Source: Bdellovibrionota bacterium (GTDB lineage: Bacteria > Bdellovibrionota_C > UBA2361 > CAKMMH01). Taken from it: 64,000 nucleotides of DNA. The notes under the pieces are model-generated. The model saw nothing but the letters and a program-made list of their open reading frames with translations, was not told where the DNA came from and searched no databases. The position numbers and the translations under genes were made by a program. The stretch covers positions 65,093 through 129,092 of the forward strand of contig JAXFOK010000005.1 in NCBI GenBank assembly GCA_034180415.1, read 5' to 3'. Positions 2 through 50,555 of the stretch are shown here, one piece after another (the first letter of the stretch is position 1; every line of letters starts with the position of its first letter).

Positions 2-3000
2 TTATATTTTGAAGCTTACATCGTAACAGATCCTGCAGATTCTCAATATGAAGTAGGTGATTTGTTAAATGAAAAAGAATATAGAGCTGCAAAAGCTGAG
101 TTTGGCTCAGATTTTGAAGCAGGAATGGGTGCTGATACTATTCAAAAAATGCTTCAAGATTTAGACTTAGAGGAACTTTCAAAAAAATTAAAGAAAGAAT
201 TTTTAGCAACAAATTCTGATGCAAAGAAAAAGAAAATCACAAAGAGATTAAAAGTTATTACAGCATTTATTAATGCTGGTAATAAGCCTGAATGGATGGT
301 ATTAAATGTTATACCTGTTATTCCACCTGATTTAAGACCTCTTGTTCCATTAGATGGTGGAAGATTTGCAACAAGTGATTTAAATGATCTTTATAGGCGT
401 GTAATTAATAGAAATAATCGTTTAAGAAGATTACTAGAGCTTAATGCACCAGATATTATTATTCATAACGAAAAGAGAATGCTTCAAGAATCAGTTGATG
501 CATTATTTGATAATGGAAGACGTGGAAGAACTGTTACAGGACCTAATAAGCGTCCACTTAAGTCATTAAGTGATATGCTTAAAGGTAAGACAGGTCGTTT
601 CCGTCAAAACTTATTAGGTAAACGTGTTGACTACTCAGGACGTTCAGTAATTGTTGTAGGACCAGAATTAAGACTTTATCAATGTGGTCTTCCAAAGAAG
701 ATGGCTCTAGAATTATTTAAGCCATTTATTTACAACAAGCTAGAAGAAAAAGGATATGTAACAACTATTAAGTCTGCAAAGAAAATGGTTGAAAAGCAAA
801 GACCAGTAGTTTGGGATATTCTTGAGGATGTAATTAAAGAGCACCCAGTATTATTAAACCGTGCTCCAACACTTCACAGACTTGGTATTCAAGCATTCGA
901 GCCAAACTTGATTGAAGGTAAGGCTATTCAACTTCACCCTCTTGTTTGTAGTGCATTTAACGCTGACTTTGATGGTGACCAAATGGCTGTGCATGTTCCA
1001 CTATCAGTAGAAGCACAAGTTGAAGCAAGAGTTCTTATGATGTCAACAAATAACATCTTAAAGCCAGCAGATGGTAAAGCAGTTATCGTTCCATCACAAG
1101 ACATGGTTCTAGGGCTTTATTATATGACAAGAGAGCGTCCATTTGCTAAAGGTGAAGGTAAGTCTTTCTTTGATATTGATGAAGTGTTATTTGCTTGGGA
1201 TGCTAAAGAGGTTGATCTTCAAGCTTCAATTCAAGTTAGAATTGAAGGAAAACTTGAAAAAACTACAGTTGGTAGAGCGTTATTATATCACTTCTTACCA
1301 AAAGTTCTTCCTTTCTCAAGTCTTAATAAAGTAATGAAGAAGAAACAAATTGGTGGACTTATTGACGAAGCATTTAGAATTTCAGGAAACAAGGCAACTG
1401 TACTTCTAGCTGACCAATTAAAGAATATTGGATATCGTTTCGCTACAATTGCTGGTATCTCTATTGGTATTAAGGATATGGTTATCCCAGAAGCTAAGAA
1501 GACAATTTTAGCAGAAGCTGATGCAAAAGTTGCCGCAGTAGATAATCAATATCAAGAAGGTCTTATAACAGCCGGTGAGAGATCAAATAAGGTAATTGAT
1601 ATTTGGTCAGAAGTTGGAGATAAGATTACTACAGAGCTAATGGATAATATTTCTAAAGAAGAGTTTGTAAATGAAAAGACTGGCGAGAAGAAGACAGGTG
1701 AAGCATTCAACTCAGTTTATATCATGGCTGACTCAGGTGCCCGTGGTTCGTCTCAACAGATAAGACAGCTTGCTGGTATGAAGGGTTTGCTTGCTAAACC
1801 AGATGGTTCAATTATTGAACAACCTATTAAAGCAAACTTAAGAGAAGGACTTGATGCTATTCAGTACTTTATTTCAACACACGGTGCTAGAAAAGGTTTG
1901 GCAGATACTGCTTTAAAGACTGCAAACTCAGGTTACTTAACACGTAAGTTAGTTGATGTTGCACAAGATTGCATCATTACTGAGCATGATTGCGGAACAA
2001 CTAATGGTGTTAAGATGTCAGCTTTAATTGAAGGTGGTGAAGAAATTGAATCACTTGCAAATAGAGTAATTGGACGTGTAACAGCAGAGGATATTATTGA
2101 CCCAGTAACAAATGAAGTATTAATTCCAAGAAATACATTGATTGATGAGGCTAAATCAAAAGTTATAGCTCATTCAGGAATTGATTCAATTATGGTTCGT
2201 TCAGTATTAACTTGTGAATCAGAACATGGATGTTGTTCACTTTGTTATGGTCGTGATTTAGCAAGAGGACACCTTGTAAATATTGGTGAAGCAGTTGGTG
2301 TTATTGCAGCTCAGTCAATCGGTGAACCAGGAACTCAGTTAACAATGCGTACGTTCCACGTCGGTGGTACTGCTAGTATTGGTAAGACTGAACAGACATC
2401 ATTAGAAGCTAAATATGATGGTATTGTTAAGCTTATTGATTCTAAGTTAGTATCAAGACAAGATGGCACATCAGTTGTAATGGATAGAAAAACAGAGCTT
2501 GTTGTTCAAGATCCTCAAGATGGTCGTGAGAGAGAAAGATACAAACTTGTTTATGGTACAAGACTTCGTGTTAAAGATGGACAAAAAGTTAAAGCAGGAA
2601 CAGTTCTTGGTGAATGGGACCCATTTAGTTTACCAATTCTTTCTGAAATTTCAGGTCGTGTTGTATGGCAAGATATCAACGAGCAGACTATGGAAGAAAG
2701 AGCTGATGAAAGAACAGGTCTTGTAGAAAGAGAAATTATTCAAGCTAAGGATAGAGCAAAAGACTTATCACCTCGTATTGTTATTCAAGGCGAGAATGGT
2801 GAAATGAAAGCTTATAACTTACCAGTAGGTATCAGAATTACAGTTGAACATAATGTTCAAATTGAAGCAGGTGACGCGATTGCTAAGAGAGAGCGTTCAA
2901 CAACTAAGACTAAAGATATTACGGGTGGTCTACCTCGTGTTGTTGAATTATTCGAGGCAAGACGTCCTAAAGATCCTGCACAAGTTACTGAAGTTGATGG

Positions 3001-3712
3001 TATTGTTGATTTTGGTGAAGATATTAGAGGTAAGAGAAGACTTATCGTAACACCTGAATATGGTGATGCTAAAGAATATTTAATTTCTAAGAACAAGCAT
3101 ATTGCTGTTCAAAAGGGTGATTTTGTAAGAGCTGGTGAAGCTTTGACAGATGGTGCTATTGACCCTCATGATATTTTAAGTATTGAAGGTGTTGGCGCGT
3201 TAGCAAATTACTTAGTAAATGAAGTACAAGAAATTTATCGTCTACAAGGTGTTAGTATCGATGATAAGCACGTTGAGGTTATCATATCTCAAATGTTAAG
3301 ACGTGTAACTGTTATTGAGCCAGGAGATAGTAATTTATTAATTGGTGAATCAGTTGAGAAATGGAATGTTATTAAGCTTAATAATGAGCTTATTTCTCAA
3401 GGAAAGAAGCCAGCAACTTATGAACCACTTCTTCTTGGTATTACAAAGGCTGCACTTTCTACTGAGTCATTTATCTCAGCTGCTTCATTCCAAGAAACAA
3501 CTAAAGTGTTAACAGATGCTGCAGTTTCTAGTAAGATTGATACGCTTCGTGGATTAAAAGAAAATGTAATTATGGGGCGTTTAATCCCAGCAGGATCTGG
3601 AGCAACTAGATATGCATTTGATGAAATAAAAGTTAAGGAAGATGAGAAAGAGAAAGAACAAGATATTTATATTGGTCAATCTTCAATCGAATCATTAGCT
3701 GGACTTTTATAA
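2..3712 (+). CDS. rpoC: DNA-directed RNA polymerase subunit beta-prime, C-terminal about 1230 aa; the 5' end lies outside the window and the frame is open from base 2
   Basis: Translation contains hallmark RpoC blocks ([16 protein letters not shown] catalytic Asp triad region, trigger loop, C-terminal clamp). The reading frame is open upstream of the first ATG ([22 protein letters not shown]...). Confidence 0.95.
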
Positions 3713-3740
3713 TAAATTTAATTTACGTATTTCAATTTAA

Positions 3741-3778
3741 GAGGGTTTCTTTTATAATACAAAAGAAGCCCTTTTTTA
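3741..3778 (+). terminator. Rho-independent terminator after rpoC
   Basis: Stem GGGTTTCTTTT / AAAAGAAGCCC with a 7-nt loop, followed by a TTTTTT tract directly after the rpoC stop. Confidence 0.55.
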
Positions 3779-3798
3779 TTATATGGAAAAAACAATTT

Positions 3799-4662
3799 AT
3801 GGATTTAGATGCAGGTATTAATGCAGTTTTAGAGCGAGTTGAAAAAACAGGTTCACTTGATGTGCAAGATGAGTATTTTTTAAAGTATTTTGATATATAT
3901 TCCGATATAAATTCACTTAAAAGAAGAATCGTAAAGTCTGGTCATAAACATGTCACTCATACCTATTTTGAAAATAAAGAAAAATTCATAGATATAAGAA
4001 AGTTTTTGAAAATTTCAAATTTATACGATTTTATGGAGTGTGTTTTTATTGAAATATTCTCTAGAGCTTGTGAGCAAGGTGTAATGGTAGATATTATCAA
4101 GCGACTAGAAAATAACGAGTTGTCAAAAGAAGAGTATTTAGAAACTTTAGAAAGTTCGATAGAAGCAAAAGAAAAAGATATTAAGTTTACAGGATATAGT
4201 AAATTTAATGTTAATGCTTTTAATAATCTTTCTTCAAAGGATTTCGTAAGAATTGCATTTATAAGGTTACTTGAAAGGGAAGCTGATGATTTTGGCCTTA
4301 AAGATTTTACACTCAAGTTAAAGTTAGGAGAGCTTACAAGAAACGAAGTTATAAGAAGGATTGTACACTCAAATGAGGCACAAGGAAAAAATCTTCCTAA
4401 GATTATCTATTCTGGTGATGAAAATAATCAAAAGAAAAAAATATTTAATAGACATCCATTTAATAAACATGAACTTGAATTTATAAGTCAAGATTATGAT
4501 GAAATGGATAATCTTGAAAAATGTTATAAAGATGCAAAAAATGAGATTAAAAAAATGCATCAAAGATCGGATGAGCTTTTAGGTATGGTAAACTGGTTAT
4601 CGGGAAGATTAGAGCTTGCATTTTATATGTTAAGTACTAAAGAAGAATATAAAAAAAATTAA
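3799..4662 (+). CDS. hypothetical protein, 287 aa
   Basis: Long ORF with an SD-like AAGGA/ATGGAAAAA context; lysine- and glutamate-rich soluble protein with no recognisable motif. Confidence 0.45.
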   Translation: MDLDAGINAVLERVEKTGSLDVQDEYFLKYFDIYSDINSLKRRIVKSGHKHVTHTYFENKEKFIDIRKFLKISNLYDFMECVFIEIFSRACEQGVMVDIIKRLENNELSKEEYLETLESSIEAKEKDIKFTGYSKFNVNAFNNLSSKDFVRIAFIRLLEREADDFGLKDFTLKLKLGELTRNEVIRRIVHSNEAQGKNLPKIIYSGDENNQKKKIFNRHPFNKHELEFISQDYDEMDNLEKCYKDAKNEIKKMHQRSDELLGMVNWLSGRLELAFYMLSTKEEYKKN

Positions 4663-4686
4663 TAAGAAAAAATCAGAGTTAATATA

Positions 4687-5217
4687 ATGGAAAATTTTGC
4701 TAAAAATTTATTTAATAATATTAAAGCAGATAATATTAGATTAAAATCTATGATAGAAGAAAAGATTTTAAATTTAATAGTATTAGGTGATGCAAAAGAA
4801 AATTCTGATTATAAACTCATATGGGATGTACTTGATTGTTATAGAAACTATGTAAGTCCAGATTTTTATGTTTATATTTATAACTCAAAATTAGAAAACA
4901 ATGAGATTTTAAATAAGATTATCCATTATTACAATTTAGATAAGTTCGTATCTTTTATAAATAATGATAACATTAAAGATACTTTTACAACTTTTCTAGG
5001 AAGTGATATAGCGATTTTATTAAATGATGTTAAAGATGAAGATCTAAGTTTAGTAGAGTATTTTATGCTTCCTAGTATTGTTACAAATAAAGAATTAGTA
5101 AAATGTAATAATAAGTTTTTATATATAGAAGATAATCCTGAGGATATAGCCTCAGCTCTTAGTATACTAAACTTAAATATTGATTATAGAAGAAAGTTAG
5201 TTTTAGGGAATGATTAA
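4687..5217 (+). CDS. hypothetical protein, 176 aa
   Basis: ORF tightly spaced after the previous gene; no recognisable motif. Confidence 0.4.
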   Translation: MENFAKNLFNNIKADNIRLKSMIEEKILNLIVLGDAKENSDYKLIWDVLDCYRNYVSPDFYVYIYNSKLENNEILNKIIHYYNLDKFVSFINNDNIKDTFTTFLGSDIAILLNDVKDEDLSLVEYFMLPSIVTNKELVKCNNKFLYIEDNPEDIASALSILNLNIDYRRKLVLGND

Positions 5218-5232
5218 TAAAAGGATTTTTTT

Positions 5233-6276
5233 ATGAAAGTAGCGATTGCAACAGTTCAAGTTCCATTTACAAGAGGTGGGGCTGAAATCCATGCTGAGAT
5301 GTTAGAATCAGAATTAAAAAAAAGGGGATATAATGCAGATATTATTACTATTCCTTTTAAGTGGTATCCATACTCGTCGCTTGTGAAGTCAATTGAAATG
5401 GGGCGAATGATGGATTTAACAAGTGTTAATGGAGAGAAAATTGATAAAGTTATAGCAATGAAATTCCCTGCATATTTACTAAAACATGATGATAAAGTTT
5501 TGTGGCTTCTTCATCAACATAGACAAGCATATGACCTTTGGAATACGCCTTATGGTGATATTCATCTTTGGGATAATGGCGAGGAAGTTAGAGATTTTAT
5601 AAGGAAGATTGACAAGAAATATCTTCCAGAGGCTCGGAAGATTTATACTAATGCAAAGTGTACAGCAGATAGACTTAAAAATTATTGTAATATTGAAGGT
5701 ACTGCTTTATATCATCCACCACTAAATTATGAGAAATTTTATACCGAAGAATATAAAGACTACTTCTTTTATCCAAGTCGTATCAACTCAATAAAAAGGC
5801 AAAGAGTTTTAGTTGAGGCGATGAAGTATGTTAAAACAGATGTTAAAGCTGTGATTTCTGGTGGCGCAGAAGAAGATGAACTTATATATATAAAAAATTT
5901 AATAAAAGAAAATAAATTGGAAAATAAGGTAAAACTTGCAGGGTTTATTTCAGAAGAAGATAAGTTAAAGTATTATGCTAATGCTTTAGGTATTTATTTC
6001 GGAGCGTACAATGAAGATTATGGTTATATAACGCTTGAAAGTTTTTACGCTAGAAAGCCAGTAATTGTACATACTGATGCAGGTGGACCACTTGAGTTTG
6101 TAAATGATAATTATAATGGGTATATCATAGAAGCTGATGCAAAAGAAGTTGCAAAAAAGCTTGATTATTTATATGAAAACAAAAATGAAGCTATAAAACT
6201 TGGCGAAAATGGTTACAAATCATTACAAGAAAAAAATATAAACTGGGATTACGTAATAGAGTGTTTGTTATCTTAG
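5233..6276 (+). CDS. glycosyltransferase, GT4-like (GT-B fold)
   Basis: N-terminal VAIATVQVPFTRGGAE and C-terminal ARKPVIVHTDAGGPLEFVNDNYNGYII match the GT4 retaining glycosyltransferase pattern (E-x7-E-like block). SD sequence AAGGA upstream. Confidence 0.65.
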   Translation: MKVAIATVQVPFTRGGAEIHAEMLESELKKRGYNADIITIPFKWYPYSSLVKSIEMGRMMDLTSVNGEKIDKVIAMKFPAYLLKHDDKVLWLLHQHRQAYDLWNTPYGDIHLWDNGEEVRDFIRKIDKKYLPEARKIYTNAKCTADRLKNYCNIEGTALYHPPLNYEKFYTEEYKDYFFYPSRINSIKRQRVLVEAMKYVKTDVKAVISGGAEEDELIYIKNLIKENKLENKVKLAGFISEEDKLKYYANALGIYFGAYNEDYGYITLESFYARKPVIVHTDAGGPLEFVNDNYNGYIIEADAKEVAKKLDYLYENKNEAIKLGENGYKSLQEKNINWDYVIECLLS

Positions 6277-6286
6277 GTAGTTTAAT

Positions 6287-7447
6287 ATGGTTAAAAAAAA
6301 ATTATTATATGCAAGTCCTTTTCTTCCGATGAAAAGTGGGATTTCCGATTATTCTGAAAAGTTAATAAATGTTTTAAAAGAAAAATTTGATATCACACTT
6401 TATATTGATAATTATAAAATTGCTAATAATCTTAATAATGAATTTAAAGTATTAAAATACGGTGTATCAAAAGTAGATTATGATTCTTATGACTGTATTA
6501 TTTACAATATTGGTAATAATGAAAAATATCATAAGTACATATATAAGGAGTGTTTAAAGCATCCAGGATTTGTGATTTTACATGATTTTGTAATTTTTTA
6601 TCTATTTTATGGTATGTATGATGATGACATTATCTTTTATGAGAAGTTATTTAGAGAAGGTTCAAATAAAGATTTTTTTCAAGTAAAATGCATGATAAAA
6701 GAAGGATATTTTGATATTAATAAAATTGCAAATATTCCTTTAAATGGTGAAATCTTAAGATCTCAAAATAAAATTATTGTTCATTCAATATACGCGTATA
6801 ATAAAATTTTAGAAACAGGATTTAAAAACAAAGAAGATATATATAAAGTTAATTTAATATCACTTGATGAAGATTTAATTCGTATTCAAAATAAAAAAGA
6901 ATTGTTTAACAAGTATAATATTCCTTTAGATGCGATAATTATTGCGTCATTTGGGAATATCATTCCTACAAAATTAAATAAAGCTACATGTAAAGTAATT
7001 AAAAAAATTTCTGAAAATAGCAATAAAAAATTATGCTATTTATTAGTAGGTGAAGGTAAAGAGGTAGATGATATTTTAGAAGATAATTTAATTATAAAAA
7101 CTGGCTATACGAGCATTAATGAATTTAAAGCTTTTATGCATTACTCTGATTTAATTATAAATTTAAGATATCCATCTATGGGAGAGACATCTGCTTCGAT
7201 GGTGCAAATAATGAAAAATGGAAAATGTTGTATCATAAATGCTGATGGATGGTTTGCGGAAATTCCAAATAACGCAGCGTATCAAGTTAAAAGAGAAAAT
7301 TTAGAAAAAAATTTAGAAGAAGCGATTTTAAAATTAATTAATGATGATGAATTAAGAGAAAATATTGGAAAAAATGCAAAGGCATATATTGAAAAAGAGT
7401 ATAATGATAGTAAGATTTTAGACGATTTCTGCAAAATTCTATCTTAG
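6287..7447 (+). CDS. glycosyltransferase-like protein, GT4-like C-terminal domain
   Basis: C-terminal GETSASMVQIMKNGKCCIINADGWFAEIP ... DDELRENIGKNAKAYIEKEY resembles the GT4 nucleotide-sugar binding half; the N-terminal half is divergent. 10-nt spacing from the upstream GT. Confidence 0.5.
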   Translation: MVKKKLLYASPFLPMKSGISDYSEKLINVLKEKFDITLYIDNYKIANNLNNEFKVLKYGVSKVDYDSYDCIIYNIGNNEKYHKYIYKECLKHPGFVILHDFVIFYLFYGMYDDDIIFYEKLFREGSNKDFFQVKCMIKEGYFDINKIANIPLNGEILRSQNKIIVHSIYAYNKILETGFKNKEDIYKVNLISLDEDLIRIQNKKELFNKYNIPLDAIIIASFGNIIPTKLNKATCKVIKKISENSNKKLCYLLVGEGKEVDDILEDNLIIKTGYTSINEFKAFMHYSDLIINLRYPSMGETSASMVQIMKNGKCCIINADGWFAEIPNNAAYQVKRENLEKNLEEAILKLINDDELRENIGKNAKAYIEKEYNDSKILDDFCKILS

Positions 7448-7456
7448 TTTTGTTTT

Positions 7457-8011
7457 TTGATATCACTGATGGTTAATTTAAAAAATATAGATAATGTAAT
7501 TATTAGAAAAGCCTCAATTCAAGATGTTCCTGAGGTTTGCAAAATTCAAGTAGATGGCTGGTGTAAGACTTATAAGGGAATTATCTTGGATGATTATTTA
7601 AGTAGTTTAAAAAGTAATATTGAAGAGAAAATTCAAGAAACAATTAAATGGTTTAATGAAGATAAAATTTCTAAAAGATTTGTCGTAGCTTTAGAAGATG
7701 AAATAATAGCTTGTTTTTCTTTAATTTTTCCAAGCAAAACTCCAAACAATATTGAAGCAGAAGTGCAGCTAAGTGATATGTATGTAAAAAATGAATATAC
7801 GGGACTGGGAATAGGAACAAAGATTTTTGAATTCATTAAAGATTTTCTTCTTAGTAAAGACAAAAATACCCTTTGTGCATGGTGCTTTAAAGATAATATA
7901 GATGCTTTTAATTTTTATAAGAAAAAAGGCGGTATCGTAAAAAAGGAAGTTCTAAAAACAATTTCTGATAATGAGTACACTGTGGTTTGTTTTTACTATG
8001 AGTTTTTGTAA
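7457..8011 (+). CDS. GNAT family N-acetyltransferase
   Basis: Motif A-like block TGLGIGTKIFEFIKDF and overall 184-aa GNAT architecture. Confidence 0.5.
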   Translation: MISLMVNLKNIDNVIIRKASIQDVPEVCKIQVDGWCKTYKGIILDDYLSSLKSNIEEKIQETIKWFNEDKISKRFVVALEDEIIACFSLIFPSKTPNNIEAEVQLSDMYVKNEYTGLGIGTKIFEFIKDFLLSKDKNTLCAWCFKDNIDAFNFYKKKGGIVKKEVLKTISDNEYTVVCFYYEFL

Positions 8012-8024
8012 AATGAGCATAATT

Positions 8025-10457
8025 ATGAAAAAATTATTATATACAAAATTTATATTTGTTTTTCTGGTAACTTATTTAGTTATATTTTCTGTAGTTTTTA
8101 AAAATGACTATTTAAGTAATATTGATACCACAGAAATTTTAACTGAATGGCAAGTTAACTTTTCACAAATAAAAATATTGTACTATATGTTTCAGTCTGC
8201 GGTATATAGTATTTGCTTGTTGTCATTTATTGTCTTTTTATACAATTATAGCAGCAAAATTTTTAAATTAAAATTATTGATGGAATCTTTAGGAATAATT
8301 AGTATAACCGTAATTTTATTTGGTTATATATATGGCAATTTTTCTTGGGATATTATAAATCTTCCGTTGTTCTTTTATGGAAGTGATGATGCTTATTTTT
8401 TATCTATCGCAAAAAATATTCTAGATGGCAATAGTTTTTGGTTTATAAAAAATTTAGATGCACCATTTGGTACAAGATTGTATGATTTTCCAAATACGTT
8501 GCCTTTTTTTTGCATTTGCGTTCGTGTTTTAGGATTGTTTACAAGTAATGTAATTTTTATAACTAACTTTTATTATTTCTTAACTTTTTTATTAGCCACA
8601 CTCTCGTTTTATATAGTTTTAAGGTTATTTAATATAAATTACTTTTTTTCTATCTTAGGAAGTATTGTATTTTCATTCTCTCAATATCACTTTTATAGAA
8701 ATATTGTACATTTAAATATTTCATCGTTTTTCTCTACGCCCATTGTTTTATACGTGTGCTATTGCATTGCATTTAACAATGATTTTAATAAGAGAGATAA
8801 TCAATTTACCGAAAAGCTAAGGACAATCACAAATATTATAACAATTAGTTTATTAATTACATTTTCTCATATTTATTATATCTATTTTGGATGCGTAGTA
8901 ATTGGTTTTAGCATGATTTGGGCGTTATTTAAAAAAAGATATGTAGCAATAGTAAAATCAATATCTATTCTTTTTTGTATAATAATGTTTGTATTTTGTG
9001 ATTTATTACCATCAATAATATATGGTATTGTCAATACTAATATGATTTCTCATCTTAGACTTCCTTATGATGCGTACGTATATAGTTTGCAATTAGTACA
9101 TTTATTTATGCCTTATCTCACCGAAGGTAAGCATGTTTTTTCGAATATCACTGATGCATATATTCGTTCAGGTATGAGTCAAAGTGAAGCTATGGTTAAT
9201 TACTTAGGAATTCTATCTTTAATTGGATTTGTAATTCTAATTTTGATTTTACTCGTTCCATCATTTAATAATTATATAAGGAAATATGAAGATGAAGGTA
9301 AAAAAGGAATACTAAGTTTTTTTTCGGCAAGCAATATGCTAATACTGTTATTAGGATTACAAAGTGGCATAGGAGTTATCGTAGCACTGTTAGGTTTTAC
9401 AAAAATTCGCGCATATAATAGGGTATCAATATATATATTAATGTATTCAATATTTGCTTTAATTTATATAATGGATATTCTCTATAAGAAATATAATAAA
9501 AAATTAAAAAATTTATATGCAGCTATTATAACAATTTTACTTATATGTTTTCATATTTATGAAACACATTTAACAAATTTTGTACAAAACCAAAATTATA
9601 ATAAAATTGCAATAAGTAATGTTAAGGATTATGCTTACAAGTTAGAAAATTTATACAAAAATGGAGCAAATATTTTACAACTTCCAATAGTAAGTTATCC
9701 AGAAAATTTAACAAATAATTCTTTAACTAATTGTAATTATCAAGTTTTGCCGTACATTTATACTAGTAATATAAAATACAGTTCTGGCGCACTAAATAAT
9801 ACAAAAGAGTATTTTGCACAAAAAGTATTATTTGATATAGATGATATAGAAAATATTTTATTAAATGCGAAAGAATACGGGTTTGATGGAATTAGCGTAA
9901 ATACCGATATGTATAATAATAATTCAATTATTGATAAATTTAATAATATCTTAGGTAACCCTAAAATTATCAGCGATTTAAAAAATATATATTTATACGA
10001 TATAAGAAATTATAAATCTAATAAAAACTTTGAATTGGACAATGTTAATTTTATAGATGATGAAAGATATATTGCTGGCGGTTTTAGTATATTAGAAATA
10101 GGTAAGGATTTTAATATAAGATGGGGAACATTAGAAGGTAAAAAAAAGTCTAAAGGTATTAATTCTTATATTTATTTTCTCCCTCCCCCAAACAAGCCAT
10201 ATAAAATCTTTTTTGATGCAAATTCAGAAATTGATAATACCCTAACAGTTTACGTAAACAATAATAAAATAGATACCTTTAATATCCATAGAGGCGAAAA
10301 TATCTTTGAAACGAAATTAATTAATTTCAATAATATACTAAAACCTTGCATTCTAAAATTAGAACATTCTGCTTCATTTTCTCCAAAAGATATTGATAGC
10401 ACAAGTTTAGATGGGCGGGAGTTGACATTAGCTTATAAACAGATTCGGCTAAAATAG
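8025..10457 (+). CDS. large polytopic membrane protein, paralog A (GT-C / YfhO-like candidate), multi-TM N-terminal domain plus about 300-aa C-terminal extracytoplasmic domain
   Basis: Probable start at ATG 8025 (MKKLLYTKF...) rather than the overlapping 7971. Conserved blocks shared with the two downstream paralogs: NFSWDIINLPLFFYGSDDAYFLSIAKN..GNSFWF..NLDAPFG, FTSNVIFITNFYYFLTF, INYFFSILGSIVFSFSQYHFYRN, C-terminal NCNYQVLPYIYTSNIKYSSGALNNTKEYF...YGFDGISVNTDMY. Confidence 0.6.
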   Translation: MKKLLYTKFIFVFLVTYLVIFSVVFKNDYLSNIDTTEILTEWQVNFSQIKILYYMFQSAVYSICLLSFIVFLYNYSSKIFKLKLLMESLGIISITVILFGYIYGNFSWDIINLPLFFYGSDDAYFLSIAKNILDGNSFWFIKNLDAPFGTRLYDFPNTLPFFCICVRVLGLFTSNVIFITNFYYFLTFLLATLSFYIVLRLFNINYFFSILGSIVFSFSQYHFYRNIVHLNISSFFSTPIVLYVCYCIAFNNDFNKRDNQFTEKLRTITNIITISLLITFSHIYYIYFGCVVIGFSMIWALFKKRYVAIVKSISILFCIIMFVFCDLLPSIIYGIVNTNMISHLRLPYDAYVYSLQLVHLFMPYLTEGKHVFSNITDAYIRSGMSQSEAMVNYLGILSLIGFVILILILLVPSFNNYIRKYEDEGKKGILSFFSASNMLILLLGLQSGIGVIVALLGFTKIRAYNRVSIYILMYSIFALIYIMDILYKKYNKKLKNLYAAIITILLICFHIYETHLTNFVQNQNYNKIAISNVKDYAYKLENLYKNGANILQLPIVSYPENLTNNSLTNCNYQVLPYIYTSNIKYSSGALNNTKEYFAQKVLFDIDDIENILLNAKEYGFDGISVNTDMYNNNSIIDKFNNILGNPKIISDLKNIYLYDIRNYKSNKNFELDNVNFIDDERYIAGGFSILEIGKDFNIRWGTLEGKKKSKGINSYIYFLPPPNKPYKIFFDANSEIDNTLTVYVNNNKIDTFNIHRGENIFETKLINFNNILKPCILKLEHSASFSPKDIDSTSLDGRELTLAYKQIRLK

Positions 10458-10489
10458 GCGATGCAATCTTTGATGCCTCGCCTGTTTTA
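10458..10489 (+). terminator. hairpin plus U-tract immediately after paralog A stop
   Basis: GGCGATGCA-atctttga-TGCCTCGCC stem-loop followed by TGTTTTA. Confidence 0.4.
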
Positions 10490-10544
10490 GCAGCTAGGCG
10501 ACTGAACTACAGTCAATAAAAGTGAAGTGTTTTATTTATAAATC

Positions 10545-10880
10545 TAGTATGCAACAACCCCCCGTAGGGGGTTAATGAAGCGAAGCGGAGCCAGGATGGG
10601 GGGAGCTCGCATAAAAAATGCGACAGCATTTTTTAATGTGCGATTCAACCCATTATAGCAAATGCCCCCCCACACCACGACCCCTTTAGGGATCGACTAA
10701 CAAAATTAAATCGCAATCAATTTAGTAAACATCCCAAATAGAATATCCATTTATATTAGTATAGACAAAACCCCTGTAAAGGGGTTATTAAAGCGAAACG
10801 AGCGTTAGCGAAGTGAAGCGGCGCTAGGGCGTAGTGGCCTAAAGCACAAGCGCTAGCTTGTGCACTCACCACTACGTTAG
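10545..10880. repeat. GC-rich island of REP-like palindromic repeats (CCCC-n-TA-n-GGGG hairpins, each followed by an AGCGAAGCG-type motif) plus a nested compound stem-loop
   Basis: aaCCCCCCGTAGGGGGtt (10556-10573), aaCCCCTGTAAAGGGGtt (10769-10787) and gaCCCCTTTAGGGatc (10679-10694). Each of the first two is followed by ttaatgAAGCGAAGCGgagc / ttattaAAGCGAAACGAGCG. Nested hairpin GTAGTGG-cctaaa-GCACAAGC-gcta-GCTTGTGC-actca-CCACTAC (10831-10875). Composition is visibly GC-richer than the flanks. Confidence 0.5.
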
Positions 10881-10974
10881 AGCTACATATTGTGCATGCT
10901 ACTTGGTTGTCATACAATTATATTATATACTAATTTAAAACTAATTTTAATTAATTCAAGGAATATATGGATTT

Positions 10975-13752
10975 ATGAAGGGTAATATCAAATTTTTGGG
11001 AATTTTTTTTGTCGTTTATGTTTTTATTTTAAGTTTGATATTCAACAATAACTCATTATCTTACCTTAATACTACTAAAATTATAAAAACTTTAAATGTA
11101 ACTAATTTTAATAAATATAAGGTTAATAATAACAATAAAAACTTTGATTTAGAAATTCCCCTTAACCCCTATAATAACGGAACCTCTTATACTGTTTCTC
11201 TTAAATTAAATAACACTTTAAATAAACTATTCAAAACTCATATAAGCTTATATGATGTAAATACAAATAAATTAGCCTATAAGAAACTTTTTAATATAAA
11301 AAAAGGAAGAAGCGTAATTCTTGCTAAAATTTCATACGAAACAAAAGATACAAATTATAAACTAAAAATTGAATCTTCAAATGAAAATATTATAAAAAAT
11401 ATAAAAATTTCTCAAAATAACGTTACACCAAAAATTGTAAATGCTTCCTGCTATGTTTTTCAAGCTTTAATATATAGCATAATTTTATTTGCTTTTATTT
11501 TATTTACCTATTTTCATAGAAAACAAATATTTAATTTAAAAAATATAAGAGATTTTTTTCTAGTAAGCTTAATTACTCTAATACTACTAGGATACATCTA
11601 TAATAACTTTAACTGGGATTTTGTTAATGTACCTATTTATTTTCTAGGCTTAAATGATGCCCACTGCTTAGCTGTACTAAAAAACGCTATGCAAGGAAAT
11701 AGCTATTGGCATATTCCAAACTTAGGAGCACCTTTTGGAACAAATGTTTATTATTATCCAATCCTAATGGGGTTTTATTACTATTTTGGAAGGCTTTTGG
11801 GAATTTTTACGAATAATGTCATTTTTGTAAATAATTTATATTTAATATTAACTTTTATACTTTCTTCTTTTGGGGTTTTTATAATTGCAAGAATTTTTAA
11901 AATTAATTATTTTCTTGCCATTCTCGGAGGCTTGCTTTTTTCAATTTCTCAGAATCATTTAATAAGAAACGGTCTACACGTCCAAATTTCATCATATTTT
12001 GTAAACATAATCGTTTTTTATTACTGTTTTAAAATTGTTAAAGATGAAAAATTCAATAATAAATTAATCTTACTAAATGATAAATTAAAATTATACATAG
12101 GTTTAATCTTAGGAGCTTTCTTACTTGGGTCAGTAGAAATTTATTATGCTTATTTTGGATTGATATTTTTAACTCTAAGTGTGTTTATATCATTATTTAA
12201 TAAAAGATATACCGCAAGCATTAGAGGATTATTATTTATTTTTTTAATATTTATATGTTTAGCAAATAGCTTACTTCCTGCTATCATAAACGCAATTTTA
12301 AATGGAGCTACTAAATCTGCTGTAAGAAGTCCATCTGAAGCTTTTTATTATGGATTAATGCTAGTTCATTTGTTTAAACCGTATAATGTTACTAGCTCTC
12401 ATATTTTTTCTGCTATTTCTAACTCTTATGATAAAGTAATGCCATTTAAAGGAGAAGTGCTTTATAATTATCTTGGAATATTAGGAGGAATAGGATTTTT
12501 ATTATTACTATTATTTTTACTTGTTGAACCCTTTAAAAATATAATACAAAAATATGAAAAGCAAGAAAATAGAGGAACATTAAGTCTTATTTCGATACTA
12601 AATATTTTTGCACTTTTAGTCGGATTTCAAAGTGGTATAGGGATAATAATATCTTTAATGGGGCTTACGCAATTTAGAGCATATAATCGTATTAGTGTTT
12701 ATATCTTACTGTTTTCAGTATTTACACTAATTTATTTACTCGATATCTTCTTTAAGAGAGCCTTTAAAAATAAAACAAACGTATATGTAGCTATCTTTTC
12801 ATTGTTTTTATTATATATTCATATTGTAGATATTAATCCTTCAAATTTAGTTCAAGATTTTAATACAAATAAAGAAAAAGTTAATAATGTAAAAGAGTAT
12901 GCTAAAAACTTAGATGATTACTATAAAGATGGCGCAAAGATTTTACAATTACCTGTTTTATTATTTGTTGATAATTATGTAAGAGATGATTTTACAAACT
13001 GTAATTATCAAGTTTGGCCATATCTTTTTACAAAAAATATTAGGTATAGTTTTGGCGCATTTAAAAATACAAAAGAGTTTTTTATGCAAAATGCACTATT
13101 TGATGATAATAATATTGAAAATGTTGTGTCAAATGCTAAGAATTATGGTTTTAATGGAATAAGCGTAAATACAGATATATATGATAATAGTGATGTCGTA
13201 GCTAGTTTAAAAAACCTTTTAGGTGAACCTAAAATTGTAAGCAAGCTTGGAAACATATTATTGTTTGATTTAAAGGATTATAAATCAAATAAGGAAGTGC
13301 ATTTTAAAAATATTAATTTAATAGAAAACGATAGTAATATTATTAGTGGATTTAGTGGATTAGAAAGAGGAAAAGATTTTTATATAAGATGGGCGGTTTT
13401 AGATGAAAATTTTAACTTAAAGAAAAATAATGGCATAAATTCTTATATTTATTATATTCCTCCAAAAGGTAAGTCATATAAGATTGTTTTAAATGTTCAC
13501 TCTGAAATTGATAATACATTAAAGGTATACGTAAATAATAATAAAGTAGGGGATTTTAAAATTGAAAAAGGGGATAGTATTTTTGAGACCAAAACAATAT
13601 TAAAAGGGAGCGGGGCTAAAAAATTAGAACCTAGTGTGTTAATGTTAGAACATAGTAAGTCTTTTAGACCAAGCAGTTTTGATAATAAATCAATAGATAA
13701 AAGAATATTAACATTAGCATATAAGGAAATCTTGGTTAAAATTTTAGAGTAA
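10975..13752 (+). CDS. large polytopic membrane protein, paralog B (925 aa), with an extra N-terminal extracytoplasmic module
   Basis: Shares all conserved blocks with paralog A (NFNWDFVNVPIYFLGLNDAHCLAVLKN..GNSYWH..NLGAPFG; NCNYQVWPYLFTKNIRYSFGAFKNTKEFF; YGFNGISVNTDIYD). Also carries an N-terminal about 150-aa region (LDLEIPLNPYNNGTSYTVSLKLNN...) absent from A. SD sequence AAGGA 11 nt upstream. Confidence 0.6.
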   Translation: MKGNIKFLGIFFVVYVFILSLIFNNNSLSYLNTTKIIKTLNVTNFNKYKVNNNNKNFDLEIPLNPYNNGTSYTVSLKLNNTLNKLFKTHISLYDVNTNKLAYKKLFNIKKGRSVILAKISYETKDTNYKLKIESSNENIIKNIKISQNNVTPKIVNASCYVFQALIYSIILFAFILFTYFHRKQIFNLKNIRDFFLVSLITLILLGYIYNNFNWDFVNVPIYFLGLNDAHCLAVLKNAMQGNSYWHIPNLGAPFGTNVYYYPILMGFYYYFGRLLGIFTNNVIFVNNLYLILTFILSSFGVFIIARIFKINYFLAILGGLLFSISQNHLIRNGLHVQISSYFVNIIVFYYCFKIVKDEKFNNKLILLNDKLKLYIGLILGAFLLGSVEIYYAYFGLIFLTLSVFISLFNKRYTASIRGLLFIFLIFICLANSLLPAIINAILNGATKSAVRSPSEAFYYGLMLVHLFKPYNVTSSHIFSAISNSYDKVMPFKGEVLYNYLGILGGIGFLLLLLFLLVEPFKNIIQKYEKQENRGTLSLISILNIFALLVGFQSGIGIIISLMGLTQFRAYNRISVYILLFSVFTLIYLLDIFFKRAFKNKTNVYVAIFSLFLLYIHIVDINPSNLVQDFNTNKEKVNNVKEYAKNLDDYYKDGAKILQLPVLLFVDNYVRDDFTNCNYQVWPYLFTKNIRYSFGAFKNTKEFFMQNALFDDNNIENVVSNAKNYGFNGISVNTDIYDNSDVVASLKNLLGEPKIVSKLGNILLFDLKDYKSNKEVHFKNINLIENDSNIISGFSGLERGKDFYIRWAVLDENFNLKKNNGINSYIYYIPPKGKSYKIVLNVHSEIDNTLKVYVNNNKVGDFKIEKGDSIFETKTILKGSGAKKLEPSVLMLEHSKSFRPSSFDNKSIDKRILTLAYKEILVKILE

Positions 13753-13866
13753 CTTTACAAATGTTTTAGATTTTCAATTTTTAATAAATTACTTTATAAT
13801 ATTAATTATTGATAACTATTCAAAAATATTTAATTTTTTCTATATTATATTTTTTAGATTTTATTT

Positions 13867-16659
13867 ATGAAAAAACTTTCTTATTTATTTTTATTTATTT
13901 TTATTTTGTCTTTTAGCTTAATATTAAGTCTAGTTTTTTATAGAAACCCATTATCAAATATTACAAGGACTAAAATTGTAAAAAGTTTTGGTAATACTAA
14001 TTTAAAAGATATTCAAAGAAATAGTGATAATGATAAATTAGACTTAGAGATTCCCCTTAATCCTAATAATAATGGTAATTCTTTTACCGCATCAATTAAT
14101 CTTAATAATTCATTTGATAAGGAAGGCGATATATTAATAAGCTTATATGAAAGAGATACAAATAAACTAATATATGATAAGCATTTTAATATTATAAAAG
14201 GGGAAAGTGTAATATTTCCTAAAATATTTTATGAAAATAAAGATATAAGTTATATTTTAAAAATTAAAGCTGAAAATAAAGAAATTTTAAAAAATATTGT
14301 AATTTTTCAAAATGAAATAACTTTAAAATTCATAAATTCAATCTGCTATATTTTTCAAGCATTACTATATACGCTAATATTTTGTTCTTTAATTGCATTT
14401 TTATATTGTTATAAAGCAAGAATATTTAATATTAAAAATATTAGTATCTTTATTATAACTAGTACAATAGTTTTAACATTATTTGGATACCTATATAATA
14501 ATTTTAATTGGGACATAGTTAATGTTCCTTTATATTTAGTCGGTATTGATGATTTTCATTTCTTATCCGTTGCGAAAAATGCCGTTGATCGAAATAGTTT
14601 TTGGTATATGAATGATATGGGGGCACCATTTGGAGTTGCAAGGTATAACTTCCCAATGCTTATGGCATTTTACTATGATTTTTGTTATTTCTTTGGATTT
14701 TTTACTAATAATGCAATTTTTATCACTAATTTATATTATATATTAACTTTTATTTTGGCTGTGTTTGGTTTTGTTTTAATAGCAAAAGAATTAAAAATTA
14801 ATTATTATCTTGCAGTTCTTGGTGGAATTATATTTTCATTTTCTCAATATCATATATTTAGAAGTACACATCATCTTACAGCATCTTCTTATTTTGTCGT
14901 AACCTTAGTTTTATATTTTTGTTTACATATTGTTTTAAAAGATAAATTTAATAATTGGAATTTAAAAATTGCAGATAAAATTAAGATATATTCTAGCTTA
15001 ATACTTAGTAGCTTTTTGATTGGGTCTGTAGATATATTTTATGCGTATTTTGGATGTGCATTTATCGCGTTATGTTTACTGATGGCATTATTTAGTAAGA
15101 GATATATTGCAAGTCTTAGAGGTTTATTTTTCATAATAATGATTTTACTAGTTCTTGTAAACAATTTATATCCATCAATATTAAATAGTATAATTCATGG
15201 GACGACCAAAACATCTATGCGAGATCCCTATGAGGTTTTTTTCTATGGATTAAGTTTAGTACACCTATTTATGCCAAGAACTTTTGGTGAATTTCACATA
15301 TTTTCGTGGTTAACACAGTCTTATAATAATTCAAGATTTTTTAGAAGCGAGGCAACAGCTAGTTATCTTGGTATAATAGGTATTATAGGATTTTTAGTTC
15401 TCTTATCTGTTTTACTTATAGATAGTTTTAGAAAAATTCTTCAAAAGTATGAAGAAAATTCTAATAAGGGAATGTTAAAATTCTTATCTAGGTTAAATAT
15501 TTTTGCATTACTTCTTGGATTACAAAGCGCAATAGGTGTGTTTGTCGCATTAGTTGGTTTTACTAAGGTTAGAACTTATAATCGTATTTCAGTCTATATA
15601 TTATTATTTTCGATACTTACAACCATTTATTTGTTTGATATTTTCTTTAAAAAATTTTTTAAAAATTTTAAACCAGTCTCTAATCAGATTTGTCTTATAA
15701 TTTTATGTATTGGATTATTGTTTATTCACATAAAAGATACTTATTTAGTAAAATTTCCTCAAAATTTTGACGCTAATAATAAGAAAGTTAGCATAGTTAA
15801 AAAATATGCCACAAATATTAATAAACATTATAAAAATGGTGCCATGATTTTACAATTGCCTATTCTTACATATCCAGAAAATTATGTATCACAAAAGCTA
15901 ACTAATTGTAACTTTCAAGTGTTTCCATATCTTTTTACAAAAAATATAAAATGGAGTCATGGAGCATTAAATCACACCAATGAGTCTTTTTTCCAGAAAA
16001 GTTTATTTGGCTCTGATGATATTGAGAATGATATTATCAATGCAAAGATTCAAGGTTTTGATGGAATTAGTATAAATACTGATATTTATGATTATACTGA
16101 CATTTTAGCGTCTGTTAAAAAAATTTTAGGAAAACCACTTTTTGTAAGTAAGAATAATAAATTATATTTTTTTGATTTAACTAATTATAGAATTGATAAG
16201 CTAGCTAATGTTAATAACATAAATTTTATCAAGGATGAATTATATTTAGGTGATGGTTGGAGTGATTTATGGCCACCAAGAGATGTTCAAAGTAGATGGG
16301 CATTTGTAGAGAGTAATAAAACGAAAGCAAAAAATAAAAATTTAGGGGGAAGCACATATGTTAGGTTTATTTCTTATGCTAAATCACCATATAAAATTGT
16401 AATTAAAGCTTCATCACCTATAAAAAATCATTTAAAAGTTTATCTAAATAATTCTATTATCGGAGATTTTTCAGTTAATAAAGGTGATAACGTATTTGAA
16501 ACAAAATATATTTATGAAGATTCTTCAAAGAATCTTTATGAACCTAACTTAATTAAGTTAGAACATTCATTATCGTTTAAACCGAGTGAGATTTATAAAA
16601 AAAGTCGTGATCATAGGTCGTTGACTTTAAAATATAATGAGATTAGCTTGAGAGATTAA
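13867..16659 (+). CDS. large polytopic membrane protein, paralog C (930 aa), same architecture as B
   Basis: LDLEIPLNPNNNGNSFTASINLNN; NFNWDIVNVPLYLVGIDDFHFLSVAKN..RNSFWY..DMGAPFG; NCNFQVFPYLFTKNIKWSHGALNHTNESFF; QGFDGISINTDIYD. Confidence 0.6.
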   Translation: MKKLSYLFLFIFILSFSLILSLVFYRNPLSNITRTKIVKSFGNTNLKDIQRNSDNDKLDLEIPLNPNNNGNSFTASINLNNSFDKEGDILISLYERDTNKLIYDKHFNIIKGESVIFPKIFYENKDISYILKIKAENKEILKNIVIFQNEITLKFINSICYIFQALLYTLIFCSLIAFLYCYKARIFNIKNISIFIITSTIVLTLFGYLYNNFNWDIVNVPLYLVGIDDFHFLSVAKNAVDRNSFWYMNDMGAPFGVARYNFPMLMAFYYDFCYFFGFFTNNAIFITNLYYILTFILAVFGFVLIAKELKINYYLAVLGGIIFSFSQYHIFRSTHHLTASSYFVVTLVLYFCLHIVLKDKFNNWNLKIADKIKIYSSLILSSFLIGSVDIFYAYFGCAFIALCLLMALFSKRYIASLRGLFFIIMILLVLVNNLYPSILNSIIHGTTKTSMRDPYEVFFYGLSLVHLFMPRTFGEFHIFSWLTQSYNNSRFFRSEATASYLGIIGIIGFLVLLSVLLIDSFRKILQKYEENSNKGMLKFLSRLNIFALLLGLQSAIGVFVALVGFTKVRTYNRISVYILLFSILTTIYLFDIFFKKFFKNFKPVSNQICLIILCIGLLFIHIKDTYLVKFPQNFDANNKKVSIVKKYATNINKHYKNGAMILQLPILTYPENYVSQKLTNCNFQVFPYLFTKNIKWSHGALNHTNESFFQKSLFGSDDIENDIINAKIQGFDGISINTDIYDYTDILASVKKILGKPLFVSKNNKLYFFDLTNYRIDKLANVNNINFIKDELYLGDGWSDLWPPRDVQSRWAFVESNKTKAKNKNLGGSTYVRFISYAKSPYKIVIKASSPIKNHLKVYLNNSIIGDFSVNKGDNVFETKYIYEDSSKNLYEPNLIKLEHSLSFKPSEIYKKSRDHRSLTLKYNEISLRD

Positions 16660-16687
16660 AGTTCTTGTATAATTGAGGATGATGTAT

Positions 16688-17813
16688 ATGGAACGAAATA
16701 TACAATTTGCCATCTTACAAACTATTGCAATTATATTTGTTGTAGTAGGGCATAGTGGTGGAATTTCGATTGGCTTTGAATGGTTTTCTATAAGTAGTTT
16801 TAATATTCCACTCTTTATTTTTATATCAGGATATTTTATAAAGAAGAGCAAGAAAATAAACTGTTAATAACTTTTATAAAGAAGATTAATAAATTTTTGA
16901 TACCAGGTCTAATAATTAATGCTATGTATGGTATTTTGTTAATCTTTTTAAAAAAATATGCTCACTTGCAGTATGGAAATGAAATTAATTTTACTACTCT
17001 TTTTATTCTTCCATTCCAATATTGTTTTCAGCTTGGTATTAATCACCCAATGTGGTTTATTTTTGCACTGTTCTTAATTCAAATAACATATTTAATACTA
17101 AGAAAATTAATTTTTACAAAAAATGATATTATTAAAAATAGCATAATATTTATTACGACTACTGTATAGGAGTATATTTTGTTCATAAAGCATATGTAAT
17201 GAATGAAGCGAGAATTGATTTTTATGTTACTGTGCAACATATTGCATACAGACTTTTCTTTTATCATCTAGGTTATTTATATCATAAATACATTGAAAAA
17301 TATGATAAATTGAATAATCTTTTGTATTTTATAATCATTTTTGCTTTGCAGGCATTATTAATAGTTATCACAAATGGAAATATTGGGATCTCAATGTGGA
17401 ATGCAAATTATAATAATTTAAAAACATATCCTATCATGGCTTTGATAACGCCACTTACTGGAATATTTTTATGGCTTAGAATTTCAAAAATTTTGGTTCC
17501 GTCATTTAAAGATAGTAAATTAATAAATTTTATAAGTAAAAATACTTGGTCTGTTATGGTTCATCATCAAATGGTATTTATCTTAATTAATTTATTACTA
17601 TTATCTTGTTATCAGGTCTTTCATATCTTTAGTGATTTTAATGTCGAAGAATTTAGAACGCAAATCTGGTATATATATAAATTGTTTGGTTATCATAATT
17701 TTGCTTTGATATATGCGTTTTTGGGGCTTGCGATTCCACTTTGTATTAAATATGTTTTGCAAAGATTATCAACAAGGAATGTTGTAATTAAATATATAGC
17801 TAAGATCTTTTAA
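16688..17813 (+). pseudogene. acyltransferase family 3 (OafA/OatA-like membrane O-acyltransferase) gene broken into three frames
   Basis: N-terminus MERNIQFAILQTIAIIFVVVGHSGG is the classic acyltransferase_3 start. The roughly 360-aa coding potential is split across ORFs 16673-16867, 16897-17169 and 17199-17813 in three different frames, which requires two frameshifts. Confidence 0.55.
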
Positions 17814-17825
17814 TAAATATTTAAT

Positions 17826-17872
17826 AAAAAATCCTCTTACTTTTTATAAATAGGAAAGTAAGAGGATTTTTT
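17826..17872. terminator. bidirectional Rho-independent terminator between convergent genes
   Basis: AAAAATCCTCTTACTTT / AAAGTAAGAGGATTTTTT perfect 15-bp stem flanked by A and T tracts on both sides. Confidence 0.6.
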
Positions 17873-17882
17873 AATATTAACT

Positions 17883-50553: not shown

Positions 50554-50555
50554 AA

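Follow-up and report, generated by a model that had tools for sequence, protein, structure and literature searches.

Three old tandem paralogs beside rpoC in a Bdellovibrionota bacterium belong to a new sequence family within the GT-C fold class

Introduction

What is accomplished by three large and related membrane proteins encoded one after another, and to which family they belong, is the question raised by a stretch of 64,000 nucleotides (hereafter the window) from the metagenome-assembled genome (MAG) of an uncultured Bdellovibrionota bacterium (GenBank assembly GCA_034180415.1, contig JAXFOK010000005.1, positions 65,093 to 129,092). NCBI records the three as hypothetical proteins SPJ04_00485/490/495. 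An original prediction, made from the letters of the window, had described them as three co-oriented open reading frames (ORFs) of 810-930 amino acids (aa), and all three, here called paralogs A, B and C, lie where it placed them on the + strand (Table 1).

We consider it probable that A, B and C are old, non-redundant inner-membrane GT-C glycosyltransferases that decorate or extend a surface glycan with polyprenyl-phosphate-linked sugars. They represent a new sequence family within the known GT-C fold class, absent from the Pfam and NCBIfam copies searched. Placing this family of ~5,800 clusters (at 50% identity) in the GT-C class would correct the annotation of many genes, and offers a set of testable residues (D228, K237, H329, R452, R569 and R573 of paralog C), together with a role in glycan decoration in the periplasm that can be put to the test.

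Predicted fold and family membership

Modelling of paralog C with AlphaFold2 from an alignment of 116 sequences gave a mean predicted local distance difference test score (pLDDT) of 89.5 and a predicted template modelling score (pTM) of 0.88. The best Foldseek matches of this model in the Protein Data Bank (PDB) were all GT-C enzymes, with AftD (1e-7) followed by AglB, EmbB, STT3 and AftA; PglB and the heteromeric assemblies EmbA-EmbB (7bvc) and Pmt1-Pmt2 (6p2r) were also among the structural matches. As modelled, the family consists of membrane proteins of GT-C_A-type fold. GT-C proteins have 7-13 transmembrane (TM) helices with the N-terminus inside and the C-terminus outside, and the model, read together with the positive-inside rule, gives 11 canonical helices in this orientation plus two added at the N-terminus. 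The overall structure resembles that of solved GT-C enzymes, and the extracytoplasmic loop after canonical TM1 contains short helices (228-240 and 267-276 in the DSSP assignment of the model) together with a conserved acidic residue, paralog B excepted. The original prediction had proposed a GT-C-like shape of the YfhO, PMT_2 or ArnT kind; the fold is borne out by the modelling, but membership of those sequence families is not, no model of any of them having been matched.

A soluble C-terminal domain of about 300 aa, as originally described, is found at residues 626-930 of C. Modelled separately, residues 655-930 (pLDDT 85.7) form four to five strands with helices between them, followed by a jelly-roll sandwich resembling a carbohydrate-binding module (CBM). 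Within the membrane module, the long loop 445-502 is modelled at lower confidence and holds the conserved E495. The N-terminal module reported for B and C but not A is real, but comprises ~108-123 residues rather than 150 and is inserted after the first helix, such that A possesses the two added N-terminal helices and lacks the beta-sandwich between them. Family members of 590-770 aa begin at canonical TM1, with neither hairpin nor sandwich, and the N-terminal hairpin is therefore a feature added within this clade, and an unusual one.

Scans of A, B and C against Pfam and NCBIfam returned no match, and among 57 relatives scanned with Pfam no family was consistently matched, five of them matching AMPK1_CBM and one YfhO weakly. 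In the sense of curated description, the suggestion that the family is undescribed has thus held. For YfhO (PF09586) specifically, A, B and C gave no match at E <= 0.1 and the one relative reached E 0.0013, below the cut-off; PF13231 and PF02366 (PMT_2 and PMT, for ArnT of GT83 and for GT39) matched neither the paralogs nor the relatives scanned. Precomputed matches to PF19830 (DUF6311), mostly weak, are on record for some relatives, and hmmscan of the same relatives with the Pfam copy used found none even at E <= 10. DUF6311 occurred in no paper found, and a general literature search on new GT-C families yielded nothing relevant. Searching PDB sequences with the family profile gave no match at E <= 10, and tblastn of C against plasmids and phages gave none.

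The family is neither rare nor restricted to a lineage. A profile built from 19 relatives and searched against 1.84 billion representatives recovered 5,841 representative clusters at E <= 1e-3 and 3,196 at E <= 1e-30, with members in Acidobacteriota, Bdellovibrionota, Myxococcota, Alphaproteobacteria and other groups, most of them 590-770 aa long and beginning at about residue 187 of C. Members are labelled "hypothetical protein" in NCBI, and dozens are labelled "phosphoglycerol transferase" in JGI/IMG (e.g. P0014, P0029 and P0030), which is probably a propagated misannotation.

Residues are numbered as in paralog C unless stated. In column counts over the 116 aligned family members, position 228, at the start of the first loop helix after canonical TM1, is Asp or Glu in 115, and Lys occupies position 237, nine residues further on, in the same proportion (115/116). 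H329, R452, R569 and R573 are invariant, whilst R332, H336, E495, Y571 and N572 are conserved in at least 90%; by positive-inside topology D228, K237 and all of these residues are placed in periplasmic helix ends or loops. The equivalent loop-1 acid of paralog A is D121 (8385-8387). In the periplasmic domain, the family-wide motifs are QLP (663-665), E671, (K/R)(W/Y)S.G (695-699) and GF.G (730-733), and the domain includes the GFDGIS block picked out in the original prediction. As the GF(D/N)G block is among the motifs conserved throughout the family, the alpha/beta domain probably contributes to the substrate site. The (R/K)(W/Y)S(Y/F/H)G block, ~70 residues past the last TM helix, reads IKWSHG in C, IRYSFG in B and IKYSSG in A, with a family consensus of RWSYG. 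The longer motifs first quoted for the three proteins are present in the paralogs, but to call the loop "invariant" was too strong: the G.DD of A and C is replaced by GLND in B, and C reads RNS instead of GNS.

Age of the paralogs and variation between strains

Sequence comparison identifies A, B and C as old paralogs and not a recent triplication. Their proteins align end to end with a pairwise identity of 44-50% over 760-920 residues (BLASTP E = 0), and their DNA is only 62-72% identical even in the best-conserved tracts, of which the longest shared are 160-220 nt. Long identical DNA stretches pointing to recent gene conversion between A, B and C were looked for and not found, so that conversion, raised as something to check, has not recently occurred among them. 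Each of the three proteins is found unchanged on 2-10 independent contigs of as much as 132 kb; given this recurrence and the low DNA identity, the three copies are not an assembly artefact of one gene, an outcome that the original prediction had itself named as refuting it. By distance tree and BLAST, each paralog has its own orthologs in related strains: P0008/L018_814 for A (77% identity); L019_927 (83%) and P0007 (60%) for B; and P0002/L019_930 (81%), L020 (68%) and L001 (63%) for C. The duplications are therefore older than the split between these strains, and of the tandem triplication first proposed, the three tandem paralogs stand whereas a recent origin does not.

The genes sit in a glycan island (3713-17880) that lies directly 3' of rpoC in all four related strains. 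Its conserved frame runs rpoC - DUF4214 - 171/176 aa - GT4 - GT4 ... Band_7 - NfeD, and the content between the GT4 and Band_7 genes varies. In L020 it consists of GNAT fragments, one C-type gene and an intact acyltransferase-3 (AT3) gene; in L001, of one C-type gene followed by an unrelated secreted 890-aa protein with TKTPT repeats; in SRR33322312 (L018 and L019), of two GNAT genes, A, B, an unrelated 805-aa polytopic protein, C and an intact AT3 gene; and in the window, of one GNAT gene, A, a structured spacer, B, C and a broken AT3 gene. Family copy number thus ranges from 1 to 3 among related strains, and is locally single in 22 other loci.

Superimposed on this is a mosaic pattern of identity. 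In sliding windows, B and its L019 counterpart share 93-100% of nucleotides over the first 1.5 kb and 63-70% over the C-terminal sandwich. For C the corresponding comparison gives 72-88% over most of the length and 98-99% from ~15,990 through the AT3 gene to ~17,190. At the protein level, C shares 98% identity with P0002 and 44% with L001 in the C-terminal sandwich, against 78% and 71% respectively in the membrane core. Taken together, the nucleotide mosaic and the per-domain identities point to recombination with intragenic breakpoints, placed near 12,500-13,000 and 15,900, through which C-terminal modules have been exchanged, and the presence/absence pattern and mosaicism suggest that the glycan has diversified between strains. 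The original description of a diversifying surface-glycan locus is upheld by the variable copy number, the unrelated genes inserted in related strains and the mosaic nucleotide identity; in its behaviour the locus resembles one for a variable surface antigen. This mosaic, copy-number-variable array beside rpoC offers a compact natural example of the reshuffling, from strain to strain, of acceptor-binding modules in membrane glycosyltransferases.

Two of the inserted genes merit description. The 890-aa protein is encoded at 13269-15941 of L001 (JBMNLI010000010, a Bdellovibrionota MAG), directly 3' of the single family gene; its N-terminus is, judged by eye, hydrophobic and signal-peptide-like, and it contains long TKTPT/TRTPT repeats. 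Being unrelated to the family, it was rejected as a member, and it is a plausible candidate for a glycosylation target. The 805-aa polytopic protein lies at 3086-5503 of L019, between the B and C orthologs, and like B and C starts with one helix followed by a soluble module. It too was rejected as a family member (hhalign probability 5.6%, no Pfam match), and Pfam gives no support to its ArnT/PMT-like appearance by eye.

The A-B spacer is GC-rich in a genome of 25-30% GC, contains several GC hairpins and folds far more stably than shuffled controls (z = -4.9). It holds two copies of a 20-nt unit, GGGGTTAWTRAAGCGAARCG, that is absent from the rest of the window and from the other loci compared; Rfam gave no match in the window, the spacer included. 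Assemblies of a related strain break at this point, with L018 ending 59 bp past A and L019 starting 136 bp before B, which would fit a multi-copy element.

The AT3 gene differs from the intact 375-aa gene of L019 by two 1-nt deletions (T5->T4 near 16834 and AA->A near 17166), with an identity of 98-99% over the first ~500 nt that drops to ~70-85% in the direction of the 3' end. Many independent assemblies carry the broken fragments (59, 90 and 204 aa), and many carry intact alleles of 375 aa; the on/off polymorphism is real, and possibly reflects slipped-strand phase variation.

Proposed function and alternatives

The function proposed here draws on analogy with solved GT-C enzymes. In such a scheme the membrane module of ~11 helices would bind a polyprenyl-phosphate-linked sugar at the periplasmic face, with K237, H329, R332, H336, R452, R569 and R573 holding the lipid phosphate and the loop-1 acid, which is D228 in C and opens the first loop helix, activating the acceptor hydroxyl, whilst a polymeric acceptor would be held by the alpha/beta domain in the periplasm and by the CBM-like beta-sandwich(es). 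The two cytoplasmic GT4 enzymes may start the glycan and the GNAT protein may supply an N-acetylated sugar; in strains with an intact AT3 gene, the product would also be O-acylated. Each paralog might form a different linkage or act at a different position: the age of the paralogs, the orthologs that each of them has and the conserved residues they retain favour specificities that are distinct and non-redundant. Through gain, loss and recombination of the genes, and above all of the C-terminal modules, the surface glycan would then differ from strain to strain.

For the GT-C enzymes GT136 ORF12, Emb and AftD, among others, published work describes a catalytic Asp following TM1 and CBMs at the C-terminus to which the acceptor polysaccharide binds, and the family pattern of an acid after TM1 with basic residues near the membrane surface fits these published enzymes (PMC11127046). 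ORF12 of Citrobacter youngae O1 has 11 TM helices, an Asp following TM1 that is proposed to be catalytic, and, at its C-terminus, a CBM for binding the O-antigen backbone; it and Gtr-type systems are periplasmic post-polymerisation glycosyltransferases that use undecaprenyl-phosphate-linked sugars (PMC11127046). In published architecture the family resembles ORF12, with 11 TM helices, the acid after TM1 and a CBM-like module. With AftA (GT85, 8if8), AftD (6wbx) and EmbA/B/C there is 9-11% sequence identity and no family model in common; the clade differs from them in its conserved motifs and in the two N-terminal helices that bracket a beta-sandwich. Likeness to ArnT (GT83), the protein O-mannosyltransferases (GT39) and YfhO exists at fold level only, the family having no MIR or TPR domain and different periplasmic domains.

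The gene neighbourhoods of some relatives are of the kind that such a function would lead one to expect. P0013, which is 30% identical and has the same N-terminal module, lies between genes for GDP-mannose/GDP-deoxysugar synthesis and an Acyl_transf_3, GT2 and GtrA group, with DUF4214 proteins on both sides; as annotated, the arrangement matches that of three-component systems for periplasmic glycosylation, comparable to GtrA/GtrB/GtrC in that the relative adjoins GT2 and GtrA. The family gene of L005 adjoins a GT2 gene, that of L010 has an epimerase-GT2 fusion and a GT87 gene in its vicinity, and an AT3 gene stands directly 3' of the family gene in the window, L019, L020 and L014. A member from a cultured organism, the 590-aa "hypothetical" WP_187431735.1 on plasmid pROLI127 of Roseobacter litoralis (hhalign E 1e-52 to the profile), is found 3' of rfbCBDA, phosphomannomutase, GT92, RgpF and ABC transporter genes; a second hypothetical protein beside it proved not to be a paralog.

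It is worth noting however, that several observations weigh against the proposed function. Most sampled relatives (L012, L016, L017, L021 and L022), including many Acidobacteriota members and two closer relatives, are in unrelated gene neighbourhoods. The 64-kb window contains no gene for a GT2 polyprenyl-phosphate sugar synthase, a GtrA-type or Wzx flippase or an initiating phosphoglycosyltransferase, so the donor pathway is not visible there, and unlike GT136 and Gtr systems the window has neither GT2/GtrA nor a MATE flippase partner. Individual roles for D228, K237 and the Arg and His residues we infer from position and conservation only; transferase activity, the lipid-linked donor, the polysaccharide acceptor and the division of labour among the paralogs are likewise drawn from analogy. 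Finally, paralog B has Asn (N227, 11653-11655) at the loop-1 acidic position, the sole exception among the 116, and may be inactive or impaired, or act as a partner subunit.

This last observation invites the idea that A, B and C form a hetero-oligomer comparable to EmbA-EmbB or Pmt1-Pmt2, with B as a catalytically impaired partner. B also departs from near-invariant positions by P670V and E671D, and the heteromeric assemblies 7bvc and 6p2r are among the structural matches. However, a second Asp adjoins the Asn of B and its other conserved residues are kept, the B ortholog L019_927 (83% identical) has Asp at the position in question, and related strains function with a single C-type copy; we regard such an assembly as quite improbable. 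Somewhat less so, and a real alternative though an unlikely one, is that the proteins act like oligosaccharyltransferases, ligases or polymerases, transferring en bloc to protein or glycan an undecaprenyl-diphosphate oligosaccharide built by the GT4 enzymes instead of single sugars from polyprenyl-monophosphate. The best structural matches include AglB, STT3 and PglB, the long loop 445-502 with E495 recalls the flexible EL5 loop, the TKTPT-repeat secreted protein beside the L001 gene is a plausible O-glycosylation target, and the near-invariant (R/K)(W/Y)S(Y/F/H)G periplasmic block, in its (R/K)WS(Y)G form, loosely resembles the WWDYG motif of oligosaccharyltransferases. Against these stand the differences from AglB, STT3 and PglB (GT66): neither the STT3 Pfam model nor the WWDYG motif itself was found in A, B, C or the relatives scanned, the loop-2 position is rich in His and Arg rather than DxD, and a CBM-like C-terminal module is present.

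A bolder reading, to which we give little credence, is that the family glycosylates proteins instead of polysaccharides, with (R/K)(W/Y)S(Y/F)G in the acceptor-recognition role of WWDYG, Thr/Pro-rich secreted proteins (the TKTPT protein) or DUF4214 proteins as targets, and the tandem genes as a recombining cassette array. If true, swapped C-terminal binding modules would retarget glycosylation and vary surface antigens. Far less probable are two further readings. The original prediction suggested a bifunctional transferase/hydrolase with a C-terminal TIM barrel of GH18 or GH114 type, for which the likeness of GF(D/N)GIS(V/I)NTD to FDG-type motifs is the only argument; the modelled domain is not a (beta/alpha)8 barrel, and we consider this very unlikely indeed. 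A role as OpgB/MdoB-type phosphoglycerol transferases, which the JGI names of dozens of relatives imply, is close to untenable: no member scanned has a Sulfatase domain (PF00884), hhalign of Escherichia coli K-12 OpgB against the family profile gave a probability of 1.9% over 32 columns, and the predicted fold is GT-C and not alkaline-phosphatase-like.

Neighbouring genes and the wider window

The setting of the three genes is as originally noted, with two GT4 genes, a GNAT gene, an AT3 gene broken into three ORFs and a GC-rich structured A-B spacer (Table 1). The DUF4214 gene is the first conserved island gene 3' of rpoC and has orthologs at the same position in L001, L018 and L020. Orthologs of the 176-aa protein occur in synteny in the same three loci (37-78% identity), as do those of GT4 glycosyltransferase 1 (71-93%), and glycosyltransferase 2 has orthologs of 62-76% identity in related loci. 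GNAT is a variable gene, with none in L001, fragments only in L020 and two copies in L018. For paralog A, an alternative start at 7971 would give 828 aa; NCBI and the original prediction both use 8025 (810 aa).

Table 1. Coordinates of paralogs A, B and C, of the predicted regions of C, and of neighbouring features in the window
Feature	Position	Strand	Basis or remark
rpoC 3' end	62-3712		first gene of window
DUF4214-domain protein, 287 aa	3799..4662	+	Pfam DUF4214, E 2e-12
Conserved 176-aa protein, function not assigned	4687..5217	+	no Pfam/NCBIfam match
GT4-type (GT-B fold) glycosyltransferase 1	5233..6276	+	Pfam Glycos_transf_1, E 3e-26
GT4-type glycosyltransferase 2	6287..7447	+	Pfam Glycos_transf_1, E 6e-11
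GNAT acetyltransferase	7457..8011	+	Pfam Acetyltransf_1, E 5e-10
Paralog A, 810 aa, predicted GT-C-fold membrane protein without N-terminal beta-sandwich	8025..10457	+
A-B spacer, 517 bp, GC-rich, strongly structured	10458..10974	none
Paralog B, 925 aa, predicted GT-C-fold protein with N-terminal beta-sandwich	10975..13752	+
Paralog C, 930 aa, predicted GT-C-fold protein	13867..16659	+	structure-modelled paralog
C residues 2-26, added TM helix			DSSP, positive-inside
C residues 31-153, eight-stranded periplasmic beta-sandwich	13957..14325	+	DSSP, positive-inside
C residues 154-181, added return TM helix			DSSP, positive-inside
C residues 189-625, canonical GT-C membrane module, ~11 TM helices	14431..15741	+	model, topology
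C residues 210-282, first periplasmic loop ("invariant loop" of the original prediction)	14494..14712	+	DSSP
C residues 626-800, periplasmic alpha/beta domain	15742..16266	+	models, conservation
C residues 801-930, C-terminal jelly-roll beta-sandwich, CBM-like	16267..16656	+
Broken AT3 gene	16688..17813	+	Pfam Acyl_transf_3 on fragments
Band_7/NfeD pair	3' of AT3 gene	opposite strand

Beyond the island, fusA is found at 33540-35633, ~30 kb from rpoC; in many bacteria it belongs to the str operon near rpoC. At 56320-57196 a 255-nt unit is repeated in tandem three to four times, with 71-88% identity between copies, inside a 615-aa ORF on the - strand (56190-58037) that has no family match. Further envelope-glycan genes occupy 48877-51938, where an MBOAT acyltransferase (50556-51938) follows a 558-aa ORF that has no assignment; counted with them is a polytopic membrane protein with DUF2079 (60926-62344, - strand). 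An MBOAT and ALGX pair is also present near the relative P0010 in L017.

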